Shown: one piece after another, positions 24,640-44,612 of the stretch | How the letters are laid out: every line of letters starts with the position of its first letter | How positions within the stretch are numbered: position 1 is the stretch's first letter | Origin: Bacteroidia bacterium | GTDB taxonomy: Bacteria; Bacteroidota; Bacteroidia; NS11-12g; UBA9320 | DNA length: 64,000 bases | Direction: 5' to 3' | NCBI GenBank assembly: GCA_965216465.1 | Contig: CBDCFW010000003.1 | Location: 256,001-320,000, forward strand | Notes under the pieces: generated by a model | What the model was told of the DNA's origin: nothing | Databases searched by the model: none | Seen by the model: the letters and a program-made list of their open reading frames with translations, nothing else | Program-made: the position numbers and the translations under genes

Positions 24640-25566
24640 TTATTTTTTTAGTTGGTTAAAATTTTCGTTTTTTTCGTCAATGTCTTTTTGAGTCGAGCAC
24701 TTGCAACATATTTCAATTGGTATTTCGATATGTAGGTCAGGGCATTCATCAGGTGATTTATTTATGCACGGAAGAATAGCTATATTTAATCTATAGCTCT
24801 TGCAACCTTTGGGCACTGAATTATCATCTACTTGTGATTGATCTTGATTATGATAAGTTTTGCAGTGTCTCTGTAAATGTGAAACATTTTCAGATCTACC
24901 CAATCTATATCTTTCCGAAAGTTTAGCCCAACCCAGGTCAACTTCATCTTTTGGAGTGCCTATAGTTATAGAAGTTGTACCACAAAACCCATCCAAATTC
25001 ACTATGGCATCCAACTTAAAGTCCTTGAACGTTCTGCATTTGCGTGTATCAATGGTGTAGATGTCTTCAGGTTTTATAATGTTTAAGGTTGTGGTTGTAC
25101 CTGTTTTCTTACCGAATTGATCTTCTTCAATGATGGTTGTTACCTCAATGCGATGCACATCATCCTCAAATTCGAACCAGTTGTTGTTGAACGAACCGTC
25201 TTCTTCGAGAATCATATCAATAATGTTTACCTTTTTGGGAATGTATTCCATCCGAAGAGAGTCATACCAATTAACTAATGCTGGACCTTTTTGGTGGTCT
25301 CCTAGATCGAGGCCTTCATAATTGTGAGAAATAGAATTTCCTGCAGCGTCGTATAGTTCAATATAGACATAATCGAGATTGTTGCTCGATAAAGCTTGCC
25401 TGAATCGGAAGGATGCATCAAGCACGTTGTAGGAATTTCCATCGAGCTCTATCGACTGGTAGCAGTTTTCGAGCCGAGAGTTTGCGAATCCATCGCGTTG
25501 TGCAAAAGAGTGTAGGGTTATGAAATAGAGGATTAAGCTTGAAGAAAGTTTAATGGCTGTTTTCAT
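24640..25566 (-). CDS. Secreted Cys-rich hypothetical protein
   Basis: Signal peptide ending SFA-Q; several C-terminal cysteines. Confidence 0.65.
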   Translation of the reverse strand: MKTAIKLSSSLILYFITLHSFAQRDGFANSRLENCYQSIELDGNSYNVLDASFRFRQALSSNNLDYVYIELYDAAGNSISHNYEGLDLGDHQKGPALVNWYDSLRMEYIPKKVNIIDMILEEDGSFNNNWFEFEDDVHRIEVTTIIEEDQFGKKTGTTTTLNIIKPEDIYTIDTRKCRTFKDFKLDAIVNLDGFCGTTSITIGTPKDEVDLGWAKLSERYRLGRSENVSHLQRHCKTYHNQDQSQVDDNSVPKGCKSYRLNIAILPCINKSPDECPDLHIEIPIEICCKCSTQKDIDEKNENFNQLKK

Positions 25567-26547: not shown

Positions 26548-27477
26548 ATGAGTAGTGAGAGTACAAATTGGGTAGAGTCATTTTACGATGCATTAAAGGA
26601 AAGAGTTAAAAGTCCATATACTGGGGCGTATATATTTTCATGGATAGGGTATAATTATGATTTGTTCATATTATTATTTTTCGTGGATGGAACAAAAAAG
26701 GGATTAGACAAGATTGAAGAAGCTAAAAGAATACTTGGAAATTCATTCATCGCTGATTTGGATAAAGATTTTGGATTTTGGGGAACGTTCTGGATTCCTG
26801 CAGTTGCCGCATTAACATTGATGTTGCTATTTCCAATTATTAATATGGCTGCATCTATGTATAGTAATTGGATGAAGAAGGTTACTCGATCCAAAATATT
26901 AAAGCAAGGGAAGAAGTTTACTGTTTCAGGCGAGGAATATTTTGATAAACTAATGGAAATTCAGAGGTTAAATGATGAAGCAATTGCAGAATCAAAAAGA
27001 GTCCAAGAATTATCAAATATTTGGAAGAAAGAAAAGAAGGAGAGTGAGAGAGTAAAAGATAAGTATATTATGTTGATTAGAGCAGAATCCGCGATTAAGG
27101 AACCCTATCAATTTGCGACAGATGGAATAATTCTAGATCATTATATACGTGGCAAAGAAATAGGTGAACATATGGAAGCACTTAGAACGTTTTATATTTT
27201 GTACGGGGCAATGAAGGGTTTTATAAATAGAGATGAGGAAGTACTGACGTCGATCATATATTCTAAATGGGCTACTAGATTCGAAACTGATGGAATATTT
27301 GTTTATGAAATAGAAACAAAATTAACAGGACGCACAGGATTGGCTAATGTAGTTAGAGTAAATGTATTAAGAGGAACTAGATTTAAGAAGACTGGTTTAG
27401 CTTTGCTAGTCAGAATGTTGATAAAAGAGGAATACCAAGAGATATATAAAAGGGCAAGTTTAAATGATTTGGGATGA
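26548..27477 (+). CDS. Membrane protein with coiled coil (accessory cargo)
   Basis: ERVKSPYTGAYIFSWIGYN then two TM segments and coiled coil; AT/purine-rich DNA. Confidence 0.7.
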   Translation: MSSESTNWVESFYDALKERVKSPYTGAYIFSWIGYNYDLFILLFFVDGTKKGLDKIEEAKRILGNSFIADLDKDFGFWGTFWIPAVAALTLMLLFPIINMAASMYSNWMKKVTRSKILKQGKKFTVSGEEYFDKLMEIQRLNDEAIAESKRVQELSNIWKKEKKESERVKDKYIMLIRAESAIKEPYQFATDGIILDHYIRGKEIGEHMEALRTFYILYGAMKGFINRDEEVLTSIIYSKWATRFETDGIFVYEIETKLTGRTGLANVVRVNVLRGTRFKKTGLALLVRMLIKEEYQEIYKRASLNDLG

Positions 27478-27489
27478 TAATTTTGCGAT

Positions 27490-27771
27490 ATGGATACAAT
27501 AAATAAAGAAGAATTTGCGGCCCTATTTGGAATGATAGGATGGATGTGTAATGAGCTTGCAATGATAAAGGGAATGAATCAAGTCCTGCTAAAAATGATT
27601 GCAACTGACAAGGGTTTTGAATTAGAAAATGTGAAAAAAGAGATAGAGTCTTTTTATGCATCTTACAATTTGATCAGTGCAGACAAGCTAGACCAAATAG
27701 TGAGATATGCAACAGATGAAGATTATAGGAATGAACAAGGTGCCGACTTCTATAAGAAGTTATTTAAGTGA
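27490..27771 (+). CDS. Hypothetical protein
   Basis: 93-aa ORF co-oriented 12 bp after previous gene. Confidence 0.6.
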   Translation: MDTINKEEFAALFGMIGWMCNELAMIKGMNQVLLKMIATDKGFELENVKKEIESFYASYNLISADKLDQIVRYATDEDYRNEQGADFYKKLFK

Positions 27772-27863
27772 TATCAAATACCCGACTTCCTAAAGATCTG
27801 CAGCTGAAAATACGATATCAATTTGTATTTCGGAAACCAGGAGCTTCAGGAGAAAATGACATC
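27770..27863. repeat. 44-bp-period GATATC array, copy 1
   Basis: GATATC at 27770 and 27814, GACATC at 27858; AGATCTGCAGCTGA at 27794. Confidence 0.85.
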
Positions 27864-27968
27864 ATTTAATCTTCTGAACCTCTCATAAATGATTAAGGAA
27901 GTTCTGGATCCACAAACTGTAGAATCAAGATAGGCCCTATAAACAGGGGCAATTTATATATTTGAGTT

Positions 27969-28871
27969 ATGATTATTTGGAAATTACTATTATGGTTGAT
28001 GGAGGCTAGCTCTGAGATTGTGGGAATACTAGGGCAAATGACAAGTGTTGTTTTTTCAACTCTGCTTACTCTTTTTATTGTTTGGTTAAGACAGTTCTAT
28101 GTAAAAAGATATGATGCTCAGAAAGTGGCAAAGGAATTGGAAGAGAAAAGAAGGTACTACTTAAAAATGGCTCGACTAGGTGCCGAAAGTTTAAAGAAAT
28201 ACTCAAAGATTCTTAAAGATAATAGAAACCTGTTCAAACGAATGGCTAGTGGTAAACTTGGAGTGTTTAATACTATGCAAATAAGTGCAATAATTGAATT
28301 AGAAAAAATGGATTTATTGAGATACAATAAGGCATTTAATGTTGTTAATGAAGGTCGAAAAGTTGAAGTTGAAGAGTGTCAAATAAACATTGCCAATCAT
28401 GCCAGATTTATTATTGCGATACATGAAAGATATTTAGAAGAGGTAAAAGAATTTATAAGTGCTTACAACGAACATAGAAAGGAACATGACGAAGAAATTA
28501 GAAGGATGATTGGTTTGGATGAGAATGTTAGAGTCAAAATACAAAAGATGTCACCGACGCGAGAAGAACAACGGTATTTTATGGAAGTTCACGGCATTAT
28601 AGATGAGTATATGAAGGTAGATGAGGAGGTTAGAATTTACAGCTCACAAGAATTATTAGTAAAACCATTATCAGAAGCTTGTATGAAGTATTATTCTTTG
28701 TCTTGGGCATCAGATATGCAAAAGGCAATTGGAAAAAGTAGAGATGCTGATGCCCAAATATTAACCGTGGTCAAAGCTGCTAGTACACAGTCTAAAATAT
28801 ATGCGGATAATGCTACAAATGCTGCTAAGAAGGTAGAAGAAAATATTAAGTTGCTTGAGAGTTTGTTGTAA
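27969..28871 (+). CDS. N-terminal TM helical protein (accessory cargo)
   Basis: Hydrophobic N-terminus then long helical region. Confidence 0.7.
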   Translation: MIIWKLLLWLMEASSEIVGILGQMTSVVFSTLLTLFIVWLRQFYVKRYDAQKVAKELEEKRRYYLKMARLGAESLKKYSKILKDNRNLFKRMASGKLGVFNTMQISAIIELEKMDLLRYNKAFNVVNEGRKVEVEECQINIANHARFIIAIHERYLEEVKEFISAYNEHRKEHDEEIRRMIGLDENVRVKIQKMSPTREEQRYFMEVHGIIDEYMKVDEEVRIYSSQELLVKPLSEACMKYYSLSWASDMQKAIGKSRDADAQILTVVKAASTQSKIYADNATNAAKKVEENIKLLESLL

Positions 28872-28922: not shown

Positions 28923-28950
28923 TGTGCCTATAATTTATAGTATGTTCCTA
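28923..28950 (+). other. dif-like hybrid site (attL of element A)
   Basis: TGTGCCTATAA-TTTATA-GTATGTTCCTA; 11-6-11 layout, degenerate XerD arm. Confidence 0.8.
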
Positions 28951-30585: not shown

Positions 30586-31317
30586 ATGGCCGAAATTTTA
30601 AATACCACGGGAGTGGTATCAGCAAAAGCAAAAATCGCAACTTCAGTTATAAAACTGGGTATGACGATTGAAGACCAAACTGCAGGTTTGGCAAAGGCAG
30701 ACTTGGAAAACATTCTAGTAAAAATCATTGATGCAGGAAATGGTTCAAATCCTGTAATCCACAGCGTGGATTTATGGACCTTACTGGAAGAAAGTGCTGA
30801 GACTGTAGGAGTGTTCATGTTGGCAGCTAACAAATTGACTGGAAGTGTTGACCTTGTAGTGGATGAAATGCCATTTAACGCAAGAGAAATTAACTTCCTT
30901 GAAGTTCAATTATCAGGATTGGTTGCAACGCAAACCGTAAAACTTTATGCTATCGATGGATGGGGTAATGATGGAGCATTAAGAAACTTACAGCTCAAAT
31001 CAATTGTAGGAAGTGCAATGAATGACATTAGTTTAATGGGAGTTAAACGCATGATTATTCCAATTTCTAAGATTGACTCTGTAACACTTGATTATCCAGC
31101 TTTAGGCAATCTAAAAGCAAAATCAGTAACCTACACAGAAGAGGAGCTTGAAATCTTACAGCTTGAAGACCCTGGTATTGTTTACCTAAAAGGTAAATCA
31201 GCAACACCACAGTATCTGGTAGAAAACAATTGGATTCTAGCCTGTAACAATGCAGTTAGAGCCAAAGTACAACCTAAAGCTGCTGCGGGAGACTTCAACA
31301 TCCTACTGGACAAGTAA
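30586..31317 (+). CDS. Putative major capsid protein (beta-rich, jelly-roll candidate)
   Basis: 243 aa, first gene of structural operon; similar to 40432-41169 (VDLWTLLE/IDLYTLFE, GSVDL/GMVDL, IDSVTLDY/VDYVEITY). Confidence 0.55.
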   Translation: MAEILNTTGVVSAKAKIATSVIKLGMTIEDQTAGLAKADLENILVKIIDAGNGSNPVIHSVDLWTLLEESAETVGVFMLAANKLTGSVDLVVDEMPFNAREINFLEVQLSGLVATQTVKLYAIDGWGNDGALRNLQLKSIVGSAMNDISLMGVKRMIIPISKIDSVTLDYPALGNLKAKSVTYTEEELEILQLEDPGIVYLKGKSATPQYLVENNWILACNNAVRAKVQPKAAAGDFNILLDK

Positions 31318-31805: not shown

Positions 31806-32066
31806 ATGTTGAAATTAGACGGAAAAAACAACGGAACACTGTGGCTTGAAGAGAAAGACCGCAAGGTGTTCAAAGGAGACAGAAAAGGAGAAACTTACCA
31901 GTGCTTTGAAGGCACAATCGACACTGGAGGCGGTAAAATGATTACAATAAAAATGTATTCAAACACCGATCCAGTAGATAAAGACGGTAAGACATTACTG
32001 CCTTTAAAGGTTTCCAAGTGGAAAGGTAATCCAAGCCGCAGAAAGACTACTAGAAAAAGCTGGTAA
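31806..32066 (+). CDS. Small beta-rich basic protein (possible ssDNA-binding)
   Basis: Operon-coupled; slot equivalent to 41669-42043. Confidence 0.6.
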   Translation: MLKLDGKNNGTLWLEEKDRKVFKGDRKGETYQCFEGTIDTGGGKMITIKMYSNTDPVDKDGKTLLPLKVSKWKGNPSRRKTTRKSW

Positions 32067-32257
32067 TGTTAAAGTGGCTAAAGACAGGATTTGGTTGGCT
32101 GAAAACAGCCAACCAATTCTACCGAAAGGTTAAGACCTCATTCAAAATGATTGAATGGGTTGGAGACGTTTTGGAATTTGCACAGAAAAGGTATGCTGAA
32201 ATCTTTGAAATAGAAGACGACAGCGAAGTAGAACAGGAAAATCAGACCAATGAGTAA
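32066..32257 (+). CDS. Amphipathic helical protein with acidic tail
   Basis: Similar to 42052-42276 (KW...EW.GDV..FA vs KW...DW.NGV..YA). Confidence 0.7.
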   Translation: MLKWLKTGFGWLKTANQFYRKVKTSFKMIEWVGDVLEFAQKRYAEIFEIEDDSEVEQENQTNE

Positions 32258-32906
32258 TGAAAGCGAAAAATATAGCCATCATTGTAGTGTCAATTGTCCT
32301 CATTGTGGGGGGCTTCTTACTATACAAACGGCGCAAAAAAAAACGTTAGACGACCATCGTGAAAGTAGGCTAAAGTTAGCAGGTAAGGTGATTCTAAAAT
32401 GGGAGGGGGGATATGTCAATGACCCCGACGATAGAGGAGGAGCAACCAACAAAGGTGTAACTTATGCTACTTATCAAAATCTAGCACATAGTGTTTTAAA
32501 GGTATATCCAACGAAAAAGCATTTTGAAAGTCTTTCAGACAATGAAGTGCTGAAGATTATCGCCTGGTACTATGATAAGGTAAAAGGTGATCACTTAAAA
32601 AGTGGAGCTGTTGCAGTAGGAATAACAGATTATTATTGGGGAAGTGGATTGTATGCCATCAAACGCATCCAATCAGCTTTAAATATCCATTACTCAAGAA
32701 ACTTATCAGTTGATGGCGTAGTGGGAGCAAAAACTGTCCAGGCTATCAATTCGGTTCCTGCTAAACATATGCTATCAATCTTAAAGGAAGTACGAGCACA
32801 ACACTATGCAGCGATTGTAAGACACGATGCAAGTCAAGGTAAATTCATAAACGGTTGGAACAATCGCAATTATGATGTCTTTAACTCTTTAATTGAATAT
32901 GTATGA
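32250..32906 (+). CDS. Endolysin, glycoside hydrolase family 108 with peptidoglycan-binding domain
   Basis: EGGYVNDPDDRGGATNKGVT, VDGVVGAKT, KFINGWNNR. Confidence 0.9.
   Translation: MSNESEKYSHHCSVNCPHCGGLLTIQTAQKKTLDDHRESRLKLAGKVILKWEGGYVNDPDDRGGATNKGVTYATYQNLAHSVLKVYPTKKHFESLSDNEVLKIIAWYYDKVKGDHLKSGAVAVGITDYYWGSGLYAIKRIQSALNIHYSRNLSVDGVVGAKTVQAINSVPAKHMLSILKEVRAQHYAAIVRHDASQGKFINGWNNRNYDVFNSLIEYV
32257..32349 (+). CDS. 30-aa single-TM peptide overlapping lysin gene (absent from ORF track)
   Basis: MKAKNIAIIVVSIVLIVGGFLLYKRRKKKR; TAATG-coupled; counterpart of 42269-42457. Confidence 0.65.
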   Translation: MKAKNIAIIVVSIVLIVGGFLLYKRRKKKR

Positions 32907-34642: not shown

Positions 34643-35152
34643 ATGTTAATTACCTATCGAGCACTAAGAGAACTTTTATATCAGAAATATGCAGAGAAGT
34701 CTCTGCAAGGAGTTATAGACGACTTTTCAGAATATTTTGATGAATCCCTCGCAACTGCAGAGCAGATTGAGGATTATGAGTATCTGTCAACATTCATTGA
34801 GAATAGAAAGGATATAGAAGAGAAATATCGTTTTTTCTGGAACTACAAGCAATGTTCGGTGCCAACGATGGTGGAGAAGCATGACTATTACACGGTTGAT
34901 GCATTATCAGTAATTGCTTATGATCATCCCGATATCGACGTAAGACATTTTGAACAGCTCATTGAAGAGATTGCAACAAGAGACAAGCACGATTTGGAGC
35001 AGTGGTTAGGTAGATTTAGAAGTTTGTACAAGGCTAGAGTAAATATTGGTAACGCGATACGAAGCTACAAATTAGGGTACATCGGAAGAAATGATCTTTG
35101 CTACTGCGGGAGTGGTAAGAAATACAAAAAGTGCCACGGGTTCAATAATTAA
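34643..35152 (+). CDS. SEC-C motif protein (cargo)
   Basis: C-terminal GRNDLCYCGSGKKYKKCHG. Confidence 0.85.
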   Translation: MLITYRALRELLYQKYAEKSLQGVIDDFSEYFDESLATAEQIEDYEYLSTFIENRKDIEEKYRFFWNYKQCSVPTMVEKHDYYTVDALSVIAYDHPDIDVRHFEQLIEEIATRDKHDLEQWLGRFRSLYKARVNIGNAIRSYKLGYIGRNDLCYCGSGKKYKKCHGFNN

Positions 35153-35155
35153 AAC

Positions 35156-35296
35156 GATATCAAATCACTTTGTCCTGGAGCTGCTCGAGCTGAACAAATG
35201 ATATCAAATCCGTTTCCGGCGTCCAGGATCTCAGGGTAAATATGATATCAAATAACTTATCTGCAGCAGATCTGCAGCTGACCAAATGATATCAAA
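35156..35296. repeat. 44-bp-period GATATC array, copy 2
   Basis: GATATCAAA at 35156, 35200, 35244, 35288. Confidence 0.9.
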
Positions 35297-37214: not shown

Positions 37215-37242
37215 TGTGCCTATAATTTATATTCCGCTAACC
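37215..37242 (+). other. dif-like hybrid site (junction of A and B)
   Basis: TGTGCCTATAA-TTTATA-TTCCGCTAACC; left arm and spacer identical to the 28923 site. Confidence 0.8.
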
Positions 37243-39039: not shown

Positions 39040-39136
39040 GATATCAAAAAGTGAGTTCAGATCCTGGAAAAAACACTTGAAATGATATCAAATACTTTCT
39101 CCAGGAAAGATCTGCAGCTGATTAAATGATATCAAA
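39040..39136. repeat. 44-bp-period GATATC array, copy 3
   Basis: GATATCAAA at 39040, 39084, 39128; AGATCTGCAGCTGA at 39108. Confidence 0.9.
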
Positions 39137-40431: not shown

Positions 40432-41169
40432 ATGGAAGTATTTAGCGGACAAATCCCTGCAACGGGAAAATTCGGAGAAAAACAACTAGAAACAAGACTT
40501 GGAGAGTTAATTTTCCAAATGTCGGGCGTGGGGTTATGTACACCTGCGAACTTGCGACTTGCAAAAATTCAGTTGACAAAGGTTGATAGAAAGACAGGGC
40601 AAAAGGAGTTTTTGCCAAAAATTGATTTGTATACGCTGTTTGAATTAACAGCACATCACGAGGGGCACTTTCAACAGTCTAATGATGCGGCTTTTGGAAT
40701 GGTAGATTTAACACCTTTTGGCTCTTTAGAGTTAAATAGTAGTGAATACCTGTCTTTAAGTGGAGAGGGTTTTCAGGACACTCTTCAGCTTGATATCTTC
40801 ACTCAAGAAGAACCGCACAAGGCTGAAAAGGCTCTAAAGTATGAAACAAATCATGTACCTGTTGGTACTGCTCCAAAAGATGTAAACTTGGGTTCAGTTG
40901 TGGCAATAGCTATGCCAACTGGCGAGGTTGATTATGTAGAAATTACCTATGCTAACGGTAAAACGATTAGAAAGGGTCAAGCAGAATTAACAGCAGAGCA
41001 GCTGAAACGAGACAATGTGATTGCGACAAGCAGCCTTACAGGCGGCACAATTACTATGAACTATATTGACTACTTCTACATAGAAGTAAGTGACGCTGTA
41101 AGTATGCGTTACAAGCCCGAGGGTTCAAACGCTCATGAAATTTACCTTGTTCGTGAGGTAACGGCATAA
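40432..41169 (+). CDS. Putative major capsid protein (beta-rich, jelly-roll candidate)
   Basis: 245 aa; similar to 30586-31317; followed by GC-rich hairpin GCGGGCAG/CTGCCCGC. Confidence 0.55.
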   Translation: MEVFSGQIPATGKFGEKQLETRLGELIFQMSGVGLCTPANLRLAKIQLTKVDRKTGQKEFLPKIDLYTLFELTAHHEGHFQQSNDAAFGMVDLTPFGSLELNSSEYLSLSGEGFQDTLQLDIFTQEEPHKAEKALKYETNHVPVGTAPKDVNLGSVVAIAMPTGEVDYVEITYANGKTIRKGQAELTAEQLKRDNVIATSSLTGGTITMNYIDYFYIEVSDAVSMRYKPEGSNAHEIYLVREVTA

Positions 41170-42051: not shown

Positions 42052-42276
42052 ATGAAATGGGTTAAATCAGTATCAGACTTTTTCGATAAGGTAGTCAAGT
42101 ATGGAAAAAAGCTAAATACGATTGTAAAGGTTTTTGACTGGTTGAATGGCGTTATTCAGTACGCTAAAACTACGTGGGATGAAAAGTTTAATGAATCTAT
42201 CCGAGAAGTGATTGAGGATATAAAAGAAGATATCGCAGAAGAGGTAACAGAAAAAACAGAAACAGCAAATGGTTAA
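42052..42276 (+). CDS. Amphipathic helical protein with acidic tail
   Basis: Similar to 32066-32257. Confidence 0.7.
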   Translation: MKWVKSVSDFFDKVVKYGKKLNTIVKVFDWLNGVIQYAKTTWDEKFNESIREVIEDIKEDIAEEVTEKTETANG

Positions 42277-42457
42277 TAGAAGAAATACAAGAGGGAAATC
42301 AAACGGTAAAAAGTGGGTTTTATGGGTAATAGTTGGAGTTGTCCTCATTGTAGCACCGTTTTTCATCTTCAAGAAGTTGAGAACGAAAGCAAAAGAGGCA
42401 ATCAAGAAAGTAGCAGCGAAGTTTTCAAAAAAAAAGGCAACAGAAGCAGTAGCCTAA
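42269..42457 (+). CDS. Single-TM basic peptide overlapping lysin gene
   Basis: WVLWVIVGVVLIVAPFFIF TM; ends after A9 run. Confidence 0.7.
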   Translation: MVNRRNTRGKSNGKKWVLWVIVGVVLIVAPFFIFKKLRTKAKEAIKKVAAKFSKKKATEAVA

Positions 42458-42837
42458 CAAAGAATTTCACGCTTAAAGAATTTGCTTGCAAATGTGGTGC
42501 GGCTGTTCCTGACAAGTATTACAACAACGTCAAAACACTAGCAGAAAATTTACAAGTCCTTAGAGACCATTTTAACGGTGCTAGACGAATAAAAGTAAAC
42601 TCAGGATATAGAACACCTGACTATAACAAAAGGGTAGGGGGTTCTCCAAAATCACAACATTTACTTGCAAAAGCTGCGGATATCGAAATTGACGGTTACA
42701 CGACAAAAGAAGTAGCAGAGATTATTGAAATGCTAATACAAGAGGGCAAAATGAAGCAGGGCGGTATTGGTATTTATAACACTTTTGTTCACTACGATAT
42801 CAGAGGTAAGCGGGCTAGATGGGATTTGAGAAAATGA
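42313..42837 (+). CDS. Endolysin, peptidase M15 family
   Basis: NFTLKEFACKCG, SGYR, SQHLLAKAADI, FVHYDIRG. Confidence 0.9.
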   Translation: MGFMGNSWSCPHCSTVFHLQEVENESKRGNQESSSEVFKKKGNRSSSLTKNFTLKEFACKCGAAVPDKYYNNVKTLAENLQVLRDHFNGARRIKVNSGYRTPDYNKRVGGSPKSQHLLAKAADIEIDGYTTKEVAEIIEMLIQEGKMKQGGIGIYNTFVHYDIRGKRARWDLRK

Positions 42838-44584: not shown

Positions 44585-44612
44585 TTAGCCTATAATTTAT
44601 ATTATGTTAACC
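44585..44612 (+). other. dif: Chromosomal dif site (attR of element B)
   Basis: TTAGCCTATAA-TTTATA-TTATGTTAACC versus E. coli GGTGCGCATAA-TGTATA-TTATGTTAAAT. Confidence 0.85.

Follow-up and report, generated by a model that had tools for sequence, protein, structure and literature searches.

Nine-adenine runs between membrane-anchor reading frames and anchorless lysins in tandem phiCjT23-like prophages suggest programmed slippage

The 64,000-nt stretch of DNA analyzed here, hereafter referred to as the window (contig CBDCFW010000003.1, positions 256,001 to 320,000, from a Bacteroidia bacterium), carries two tandem phiCjT23-like (Finnlakeviridae-related) prophages, i.e. temperate single-stranded DNA (ssDNA) phages with an internal lipid membrane, here named elements A and B. 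In both of them, a small open reading frame (ORF) encoding a single transmembrane (TM) helix overlaps the 5' end of a lysin frame, and the small upstream genes, TM ORFs, lysin domains and capsid genes of A and B lie on the forward strand. The small upstream gene of element A (32066..32257, 63 aa) ends with a TAA stop codon overlapping the ATG of the TM-anchor ORF (TAATG). This second ORF (32257..32349, 30 aa) encodes a short basic N-terminus, a single strongly hydrophobic helix (Kyte-Doolittle, KD, peak of 2.57 in a 19-residue window) and the sequence YKRRKKKR, and it aligned with phiCjT23 gp11 (BLASTP E 2e-4 across 21 aa). A run of nine adenines (A9), the putative slip site, is located at 32335..32343 with a C on either side; the TM frame reads AAA AAA AAA CGT TAG, the stop being one codon further on. 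The lysin is read in the -1 frame with respect to the TM ORF (32250-32906), and the domain that this frame encodes from the run onwards (32343..32906, 187 aa), which lacks a TM segment, matched Pfam Glyco_hydro_108 (GH108; E 1.5e-17, 64.3 bits, gathering cut-off 21.2) and PG_binding_3. The sole upstream ATG in this frame (32250..32252) would yield a 31-residue alternative-frame leader, and the single start codon found after the run is a GTG at +53, which is replaced with CTT in the related element G025. The fusion of the two frames predicted from the coordinates is 29 + 187 = 216 aa long.

Element B displays the same arrangement with a different enzyme. The 3' end of its small upstream gene (42052..42276, 74 aa) overlaps the start of the TM-anchor ORF (ATGGTTAA), and this ORF (42269..42457, 62 aa) encodes a basic N-terminus, a TM helix, a basic amphipathic stretch, KKK and six more residues. 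The putative A9 slip site (42427..42435) reads TC[A AAA AAA AA]G, where the brackets delimit the run, and the heptamer A_AAA_AAG is therefore in frame. The lysin frame (42313-42837) is again -1 relative to the TM ORF and encodes a Peptidase_M15_3 domain (42436..42837, 133 aa; Pfam E 2.5e-20, 73.1 bits, gathering cut-off 23.2) without a TM segment. No ATG, GTG or TTG codon was found from the run to the lysin domain. The M15 homologues that stand free begin with MKLTKNF, whereas element B has SSLTKNF, the methionine being absent from the domain start. The predicted fusion is 56 + 133 = 189 aa long, as deduced from the coordinates. A preliminary description of the window had reported runs of exactly nine A residues at the two sites, a single-TM basic ORF in frame 0 with the lysin in the -1 frame in both elements, the in-frame A_AAA_AAG heptamer of element B and the unrelated nature of the two enzymes. 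Our analysis agrees with each of these statements and identifies the enzymes as Glyco_hydro_108 plus PG_binding_3 and as Peptidase_M15_3.

A capsid-profile search of 191 genomes of the window's order identified elements in five genomes: the window's own genome (G000, 3.23 Mb in 6 contigs), with elements A and B, and the genomes G025, G083, G101 and G052. The last of these was excluded, as the capsid match was on a 2.4-kb contig lacking the lysin region. All five remaining elements, from four assemblies, have a TM ORF in frame 0, an exact A9 and an enzyme in the -1 frame; the conservation of the A-run and of the frame relation, put forward as a check in the preliminary description, was thus observed in 5/5 homologous elements. 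Four different enzyme domains are found among these elements. The run reads AAA AAA AAA in element A and G025, both with a GH108 domain, and xxA AAA AAA AAG in element B (M15_3), G083 (a domain without a firm assignment, possibly glucosaminidase-like) and G101 (phrog_873 'endolysin' type). The first two elements accordingly have A_AAA_AAA as their zero-frame heptamer, and the other three have A_AAA_AAG. The glucosaminidase-like reading of the G083 enzyme is based on a language-model lead and on weak BLASTP similarity to a motif (E 0.16); a sequence search of the PDB yielded no match, and a single-sequence fold was uninformative (predicted local distance difference test, pLDDT, 38). Capsid identity to element A is 62% for G025, 24% for G083 and 21% for G101, and the run length is nevertheless constant at nine across both codon phases. 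Since nine bases are kept irrespective of phase, the conserved length exceeds the needs of a 7-nt ribosomal site. The TM ORFs have KD hydrophobicity values of 2.6-3.1, with basic residues on both flanks, and directly 3' of the run the -1 frame of B, G083 and G101 encodes a linker rich in G, S, T and N.

Searches in larger collections added little to this set. A profile of the TM ORF run against 1.84 billion proteins returned the G083 and G101 ORFs alone, so no in-frame fused homologue of the anchor was found. The capsid profile run against 5.8 billion proteins returned the known members and one 945-bp contig, and nothing more. No elements were recovered from viral contigs by single-protein capsid scans or profile scans, from phage genomes by tblastn, or from metagenome contigs with a capsid-pair profile, and the scan of genome contigs yielded G025 again and nothing else; the divergence within the five-sequence capsid alignment was too great for profile scanning. 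A scan of metagenomes with the gp12-like protein yielded 10 loci, none of them with the TM-ORF/A-run/lysin arrangement.

The preliminary description also drew attention to a 13-mer common to the two elements (TTGTCCTCATTGT, repeat family D16), which was indeed found at 32294-32306 and 42339-42351. It encodes (I/V)-V-L-I-V in the TM frame and reads CPHC in the lysin frame. A T-ending codon before a valine codon (GTN) yields TGT (Cys) in the -1 frame, and I-V-L-I-V therefore reads in this way. Likewise, the -1 frame over a TM helix is free of stop codons because NTN codons become xNT, which is never a stop. The interpretation of CPHC as a zinc or redox motif was consequently rejected, as it is a by-product of the -1 reading of TM codons. 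In G083 and G101, the -1 frame contains stop codons 24 and 15 nt before the run, respectively, and is open from the run on, so no CxxC leader is possible in these relatives. Substitutions between element A and G025 in the 66 nt upstream of the run (9, 8 and 11 by codon position) were too few to discriminate between the frames. Of the three products that had been proposed for the locus, the free TM peptide and the TM-lysin fusion arising from a -1 event passed the comparative test, whereas the soluble CxxC-leader lysin found no support, its leader being a frame by-product.

Long A-runs are rare in the window's genome, which contains 38 A9/T9, 3 A10/T10 and 1 A11/T11 runs in 3.23 Mb. Between window positions 25001 and 45000, no A/T run reaches 9 nt apart from the two at the junctions. 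Among the 265 KKK tripeptides encoded by the 1914 ORFs of at least 200 codons in this genome, two are encoded by AAA AAA AAA (0.8%, versus 27% expected from codon use) and four by AAA AAA AAG. The genome thus avoids long A-runs within genes, and the pair of A9 runs at the junctions exceeds chance. According to two reports (PMC5009743; PMC4363877), Escherichia coli avoids such runs likewise. Two further runs of the same genome, at C5:364103-364112 (A10) and C5:636893-636901 (A9), each lie directly 5' of a long ORF that has a short upstream ORF in a different frame, and are probably A-rich leaders.

The comparison was extended to 33 related elements: the five A9 elements, phiCjT23, G201, G249, G519 and 24 further prophages (22 new matches from 351 genomes of genus g39, plus G745 and G835). 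An in-frame C-terminal TM helix was present in 26/33 lysins; those of phiCjT23, G201, G249 and G519 have this helix together with their own ATG, and there is no TM ORF upstream and no A-run. The other seven lysins have no in-frame TM segment, and in all seven an A9 or A10 connects the enzyme with a -1-frame TM ORF. This ORF is located upstream in five cases and downstream, as a gp11-like ORF, in L054 and L056. Three prophages of genus g39 have an A10 exactly at the boundary between the lysin domain and the TM segment (L054 2654-2663, L056 2584-2593 and L058 2988-2997). Read across this run, the TM segment of L058 is in frame with the enzyme, whereas those of L054 and L056 are in the -1 frame. 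The lysin slot is occupied by GH108, M15_3, gp10-type, Phage_lysozyme, Glucosaminidase and SLT-like enzymes, i.e. at least five hydrolase families according to Pfam/PHROGs and, in addition, the SLT-like type (Pfam SLT match below the cut-off, strong phrog_4928/196 matches). The closest GH108 homologues outside these elements (P0123, P0166/P0171 and P0206) have a C-terminal TM helix followed by a basic tail, and the M15 homologue P0040 has an N-terminal TM segment in frame with the enzyme. In this phage family, membrane anchoring of the peptidoglycan hydrolase is the rule. A homopolymer of at least 9 nt was found at or within the lysin anchor in 27/33 elements, although this and the other counts overstate independence because the lineages are related.

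The in-frame anchors have long runs of their own. A sense-strand T9 or T10 is present within the anchor in 19/26 of these lysins, from four enzyme families and including phiCjT23 (L032 4768-4776). The phase of the T-run is invariably xTT TTT TTT Tnn, and it spans an L-F-F-Y-like stretch. In the 27 loci used for this comparison, with TTT:TTC counts of 1612:418 for Phe codons, none of the 120 FF dipeptides of other ORFs (at least 50 aa) lay in a T-run of at least 9 nt, versus 19/26 for the lysin ORFs. Slippage at the T-run would swap the second half of the anchor for a short hydrophilic tail.

We therefore consider it probable that programmed slippage at the A9 run yields both a free TM peptide and an anchored lysin, with transcriptional slippage favoured over ribosomal frameshifting. 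In the window's lineage, the anchor would be a separate small ORF immediately 5' of an anchorless enzyme domain, which, in A, B and G025, appears to be devoid of a start codon that it could use. Standard decoding would produce a free TM peptide resembling phiCjT23 gp11. In the -1 event at A9, the RNA polymerase would insert one A, giving an A10 mRNA, or the ribosome would slip by -1 on A_AAA_AAA/G, and the slipped fraction would consist of the TM anchor, a basic linker (KKK) and the lysin. The A9 run may thereby set a fixed ratio of the two products, and the fusion might serve as a virion-membrane entry enzyme and/or as a tethered endolysin. The arrangement of the sequence, its scarcity in the host, its conservation and the complementary distribution of anchors were observed directly, whereas the occurrence of slippage, its frequency and the roles of the two products are inferred.

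The two routes would result in an identical protein, and we regard transcription as somewhat more probable than translation. The transcriptional route is favoured because nine rather than seven bases are kept, independently of phase, because both A- and T-runs are used, and because there is no stimulatory structure. Runs of 9 nt of A or T are described in PMC5009743 as sites of efficient slippage by bacterial RNA polymerase, with a productive use in Thermus dnaX. The ribosomal route is favoured by the presence of A_AAA_AAG in frame in three elements and of a single type of tRNA-Lys(UUU) in the host; Aragorn identified two tRNA-Lys(UUU) and no CUU counterpart among the 51 tRNAs of the window's genome. 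PMC5009743 also describes A_AAA_AAG as shift-prone when one tRNA-Lys decodes both codons, and ribosome sliding along poly-A, as described in PMC4363877, is a third possible route.

Several observations weigh against slippage as the explanation of these junctions. No significant RNA structure was detected downstream from the run in the five 80-nt folds (z = +1.35, -1.12, +0.64, +0.94 and -0.77), none being common to the elements, and the structures upstream from the five sites were neither significant nor conserved (z = -0.51, +0.28, -1.06, -2.15 and -1.11). An Rfam scan yielded no match and a promoter/terminator scan nothing useful. Classical stimulated -1 programmed ribosomal frameshifting is therefore unsupported. 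A plausible enzyme start is present at the TM-ORF stop in G083 (GTG, 5 nt after it) and G101 (ATGA overlap), so ordinary coupled translation would suffice in these two elements. In A, G025 and B, an ATG of the lysin frame lies at -85, -112 and -105 nt from the run, respectively, near the TM-ORF start, so an alternative-frame leader may be made there. We also compared the window region with DNA-like contigs from four low-depth sequencing runs of one study, and the A-run is interrupted by contig ends in run X2 at site A and in run X3 at site B, making the run length uncertain in those data. The TM helix is basic on both sides, and the lysin could thus lie on either face of the membrane. A8-A9 runs were also found in non-coding spacers before gp11-like ORFs (L037, L019, L049 and L050), so A-runs may also act as expression signals in this family. 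Finally, element A is related to G025, and the TM ORFs of B, G083 and G101 can be aligned with one another, so the seven out-of-frame cases perhaps correspond to four or five independent lineages.

The start codons in G083 and G101, the upstream ATGs in A, G025 and B, and the A8-A9 runs in non-coding spacers 5' of gp11-like ORFs would also be expected of ordinary adjacent or overlapping genes, i.e. a gp11-like small membrane protein and a separately translated lysin, with no recoding at all. The A9 would then reflect only the codons chosen for KKK, or an A-rich signal for expression, and public gene calls do list separate proteins (P0001, P0121, P0122, P0246 and P0247). We nevertheless find this explanation unlikely. 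It does not account for an exact A9 in 5/5 elements and in two phases, in a host in which AAA AAA AAA encodes 2/265 KKK tripeptides, nor for the fact that exactly the seven anchorless lysins adjoin a -1-frame TM ORF across A9 or A10, nor for the opening of the -1 frame just 5' of the run in G083 and G101. Moreover, the alternative-frame leaders that it invokes are by-products of TM codons, and the element B lysin lacks the domain-start Met seen in its free-standing homologues.

The remaining alternatives concern the DNA itself. One extra A would repair all seven out-of-frame cases, the direction typical of homopolymer under-calling, and the true sequence could thus be an A10, in which case one uninterrupted frame would encode a lysin with an N-terminal anchor; the window's genome, with its 6 contigs, may be a long-read assembly, and the contigs of X2 and X3 end inside the runs. 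However, A9 was recovered in four separate assemblies (6, ~20, ~80 and ~50 contigs), the four A9 and one A10 sense-strand runs within ORFs of at least 200 codons in the window's genome are all in frame, no other gene of this genome being broken at a long run, and contigs from single sequencing runs give a gapless A9 at site A (X1) and at site B (X2), which makes such an error very unlikely. Runs of 9-10 nt are also mutable, and slipped-strand mispairing could toggle between A9 (off) and A10 (on) in the phage or lysogen population. The contig breaks at the runs in two of the four sequencing runs and the A10 with an in-frame anchor in the relative L058 would be consistent with such phase variation. 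The assemblies of the five window-type elements all show the 'off' state, though, the two products would not be obtainable in one infected cell, and stochastic switching has no obvious benefit for a prophage lysis or entry function; we accordingly give this proposal very little weight. Inactivating indels are commonest at homopolymers, and since elements A and B are both integrated, a frameshift at a mutable run could also have broken an anchored-lysin gene in decaying prophages. Decay is hard to reconcile with the retention of an identical break between elements with capsids only 62% and 20-25% identical, with flanking ORFs that are all intact, and with elements that appear to be mobile (a variant without B and a circular or tandem junction of A in the run contigs), and we judge it extremely improbable.

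A more general form of programmed slippage, in which a 9-10-nt homopolymer at the lysin/anchor boundary would act as a family-wide isoform switch in internal-membrane ssDNA phages, is put forward tentatively, as we consider its chances to be somewhat below even. According to this scheme, A9 would, in the window's lineage, attach the lysin to what is otherwise a free anchor peptide, T9 in phiCjT23-type anchors would strip the anchor from some of the molecules, and A10 would add a gp11-like anchor in two other prophages. If this is true, the anchor and the slip site form a portable cassette, by which at least six unrelated hydrolases of the cell wall have been captured, and the ratio of tethered (virion or membrane) to free enzyme is set without any regulator.

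Homopolymer recoding is already known from dnaX, insertion sequence (IS) elements and tssM. The junctions of B, G083 and G101 resemble E. coli dnaX in their in-frame A_AAA_AAG, and the single type of tRNA-Lys(UUU) in the host is a further similarity. E. coli dnaX has a downstream stem-loop and an upstream Shine-Dalgarno-like stimulator, whereas no significant RNA structure was found here, and A and G025 have AAA AAA AAA C/G. Thermus thermophilus dnaX, as presented in PMC5009743, also has an exact 9-nt homopolymer in its coding region, and shifts due to extra A residues in the mRNA set the product fraction. However, slippage in Thermus truncates a replication protein, whereas in these phages a 30-67-aa membrane peptide is predicted to gain an enzyme domain. 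In Citrobacter rodentium, PMC4256274 describes a poly-A tract (A11) in tssM1 giving two length variants, a membrane-anchored short form and a full-length form, both of which are required and the ratio of which is functional. Unlike our case, a phage lysin with predicted slippage at an A9 run, tssM1 encodes a type VI secretion component with an A11 run and is experimentally proven. The arrangement is also reminiscent of signal-arrest-release (SAR) and other signal-anchored endolysins, in which an N-terminal TM helix precedes the muralytic domain, as it does in frame in P0040. The TM segment of SAR endolysins is encoded by the same ORF as the catalytic domain and is weakly hydrophobic, whereas the TM segment of the elements described here is encoded in a different frame from the enzyme, shows strong hydrophobicity (KD 2.6-3.1) and has basic residues on either side.

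The phages phiCjT23 and FLiP belong to the same virus group as the elements studied here, as judged by capsid fold and synteny. phiCjT23 gp10 is homologous to the lysins of G101 and G201, and gp11 resembles the TM ORF; unlike the arrangement in elements A and B, the gp10 anchor is in frame, C-terminal and has a T9 inside it. Term searches of the main text of PMC9719478 yielded no mention of the gp10 gene, its anchor or any homopolymer. The lytic enzyme of FLiP (P14) is annotated as a virion structural protein (PMC7654751). In our dataset, this SLT-like virion 'putative lytic enzyme' (L061, 6780-7445) has a moderately hydrophobic end (WFALVALAIAGGFYVV) that is sub-threshold for a TM segment, and the FLiP genome contains no homopolymer of at least 9 nt.

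Among the papers retrieved by literature searches combining endolysins with transcriptional slippage or ribosomal frameshifting, judged by their listing or by title and the beginning of the abstract, there was no relevant report of lysin recoding or anchor attachment. The gene context for homopolymer recoding (a phage lysin, with attachment of an anchor) would therefore appear to be new, and is possibly family-wide. If the recoding is real, prophage annotations are systematically wrong at this position, listing an orphan mini-ORF and a lysin with a nonsense leader. It would also illustrate the gene economy of ssDNA phages of 7-8 kb, and provide a handle on how membrane-containing phages put a wall-degrading enzyme onto their internal membrane.

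The two elements are bounded by three dif-like sites, at 28926..28946 (left end of A), 37218..37242 (between A and B) and 44588..44612 (right end of B), each a copy of GCCTATAATTTATA, and are 8.3 kb (A) and 7.4 kb (B) long. The right-hand arm of these sites is one that we take to resemble the XerD arm of E. coli dif. According to PMC9719478, phiCjT23-like prophages are 6-8.4 kb long, with dif sites as flanks. The major capsid protein of element A (30586..31317, 243 aa) is a double jelly-roll in its AlphaFold model (pLDDT 84), the top fold match of which was the phiCjT23 capsid (7zzz_A, E 8e-15, template-modelling score 0.80/0.82), followed by FLiP (5oac) and then by PRD1 P3 and PM2 P2. The capsid protein of element B (40432..41169, 245 aa) is 28% identical to that of element A and matched phrog_20547 'virion structural protein'. 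The identification of the elements as temperate internal-membrane ssDNA phages is based on this capsid fold match and on the dif-flanked layout of 6-8.4 kb. At the position 5' of the capsid gene, where a replication initiator would be expected, there are ORFs of 397 and 416 aa, with no Pfam or PHROG match and no significant BLASTP similarity to phiCjT23 gp03 (E 2.1). Among the contigs of the sequencing runs, one from X1 joins position 37233 to the sequence right of the 44588 site, indicating a variant without element B, and one from X3 joins 37231 to the left end of element A, as expected if A exists as a circle or in tandem; both junctions suggest that the elements are mobile.

Some other features of these elements deserve mention. 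The 7.9-kb element of G083 (L012, G083:C10:13000-32000) is present in two identical tandem copies 7908 bp apart, which may reflect either integration in tandem or the assembly of a concatemer. In element A, a 169-aa ORF (34643-35152) has a C-terminal SEC-C zinc motif (Pfam E 8.6e-10). A 55-nt repeat with ends of the GATATCAAA type and the core GATCTGCAGCTGA is present in four copies in or beside the elements (27768-27822, 35154-35208, 35242-35296 and 39082-39136) and may be an origin or recombination signal. To the left of the first dif-like site, the region 26548-28871 contains a 309-aa ORF with a phrog_4780 match, a 300-aa ORF and one copy of the 55-nt repeat; this combination suggests the presence of a third, partial mobile element.

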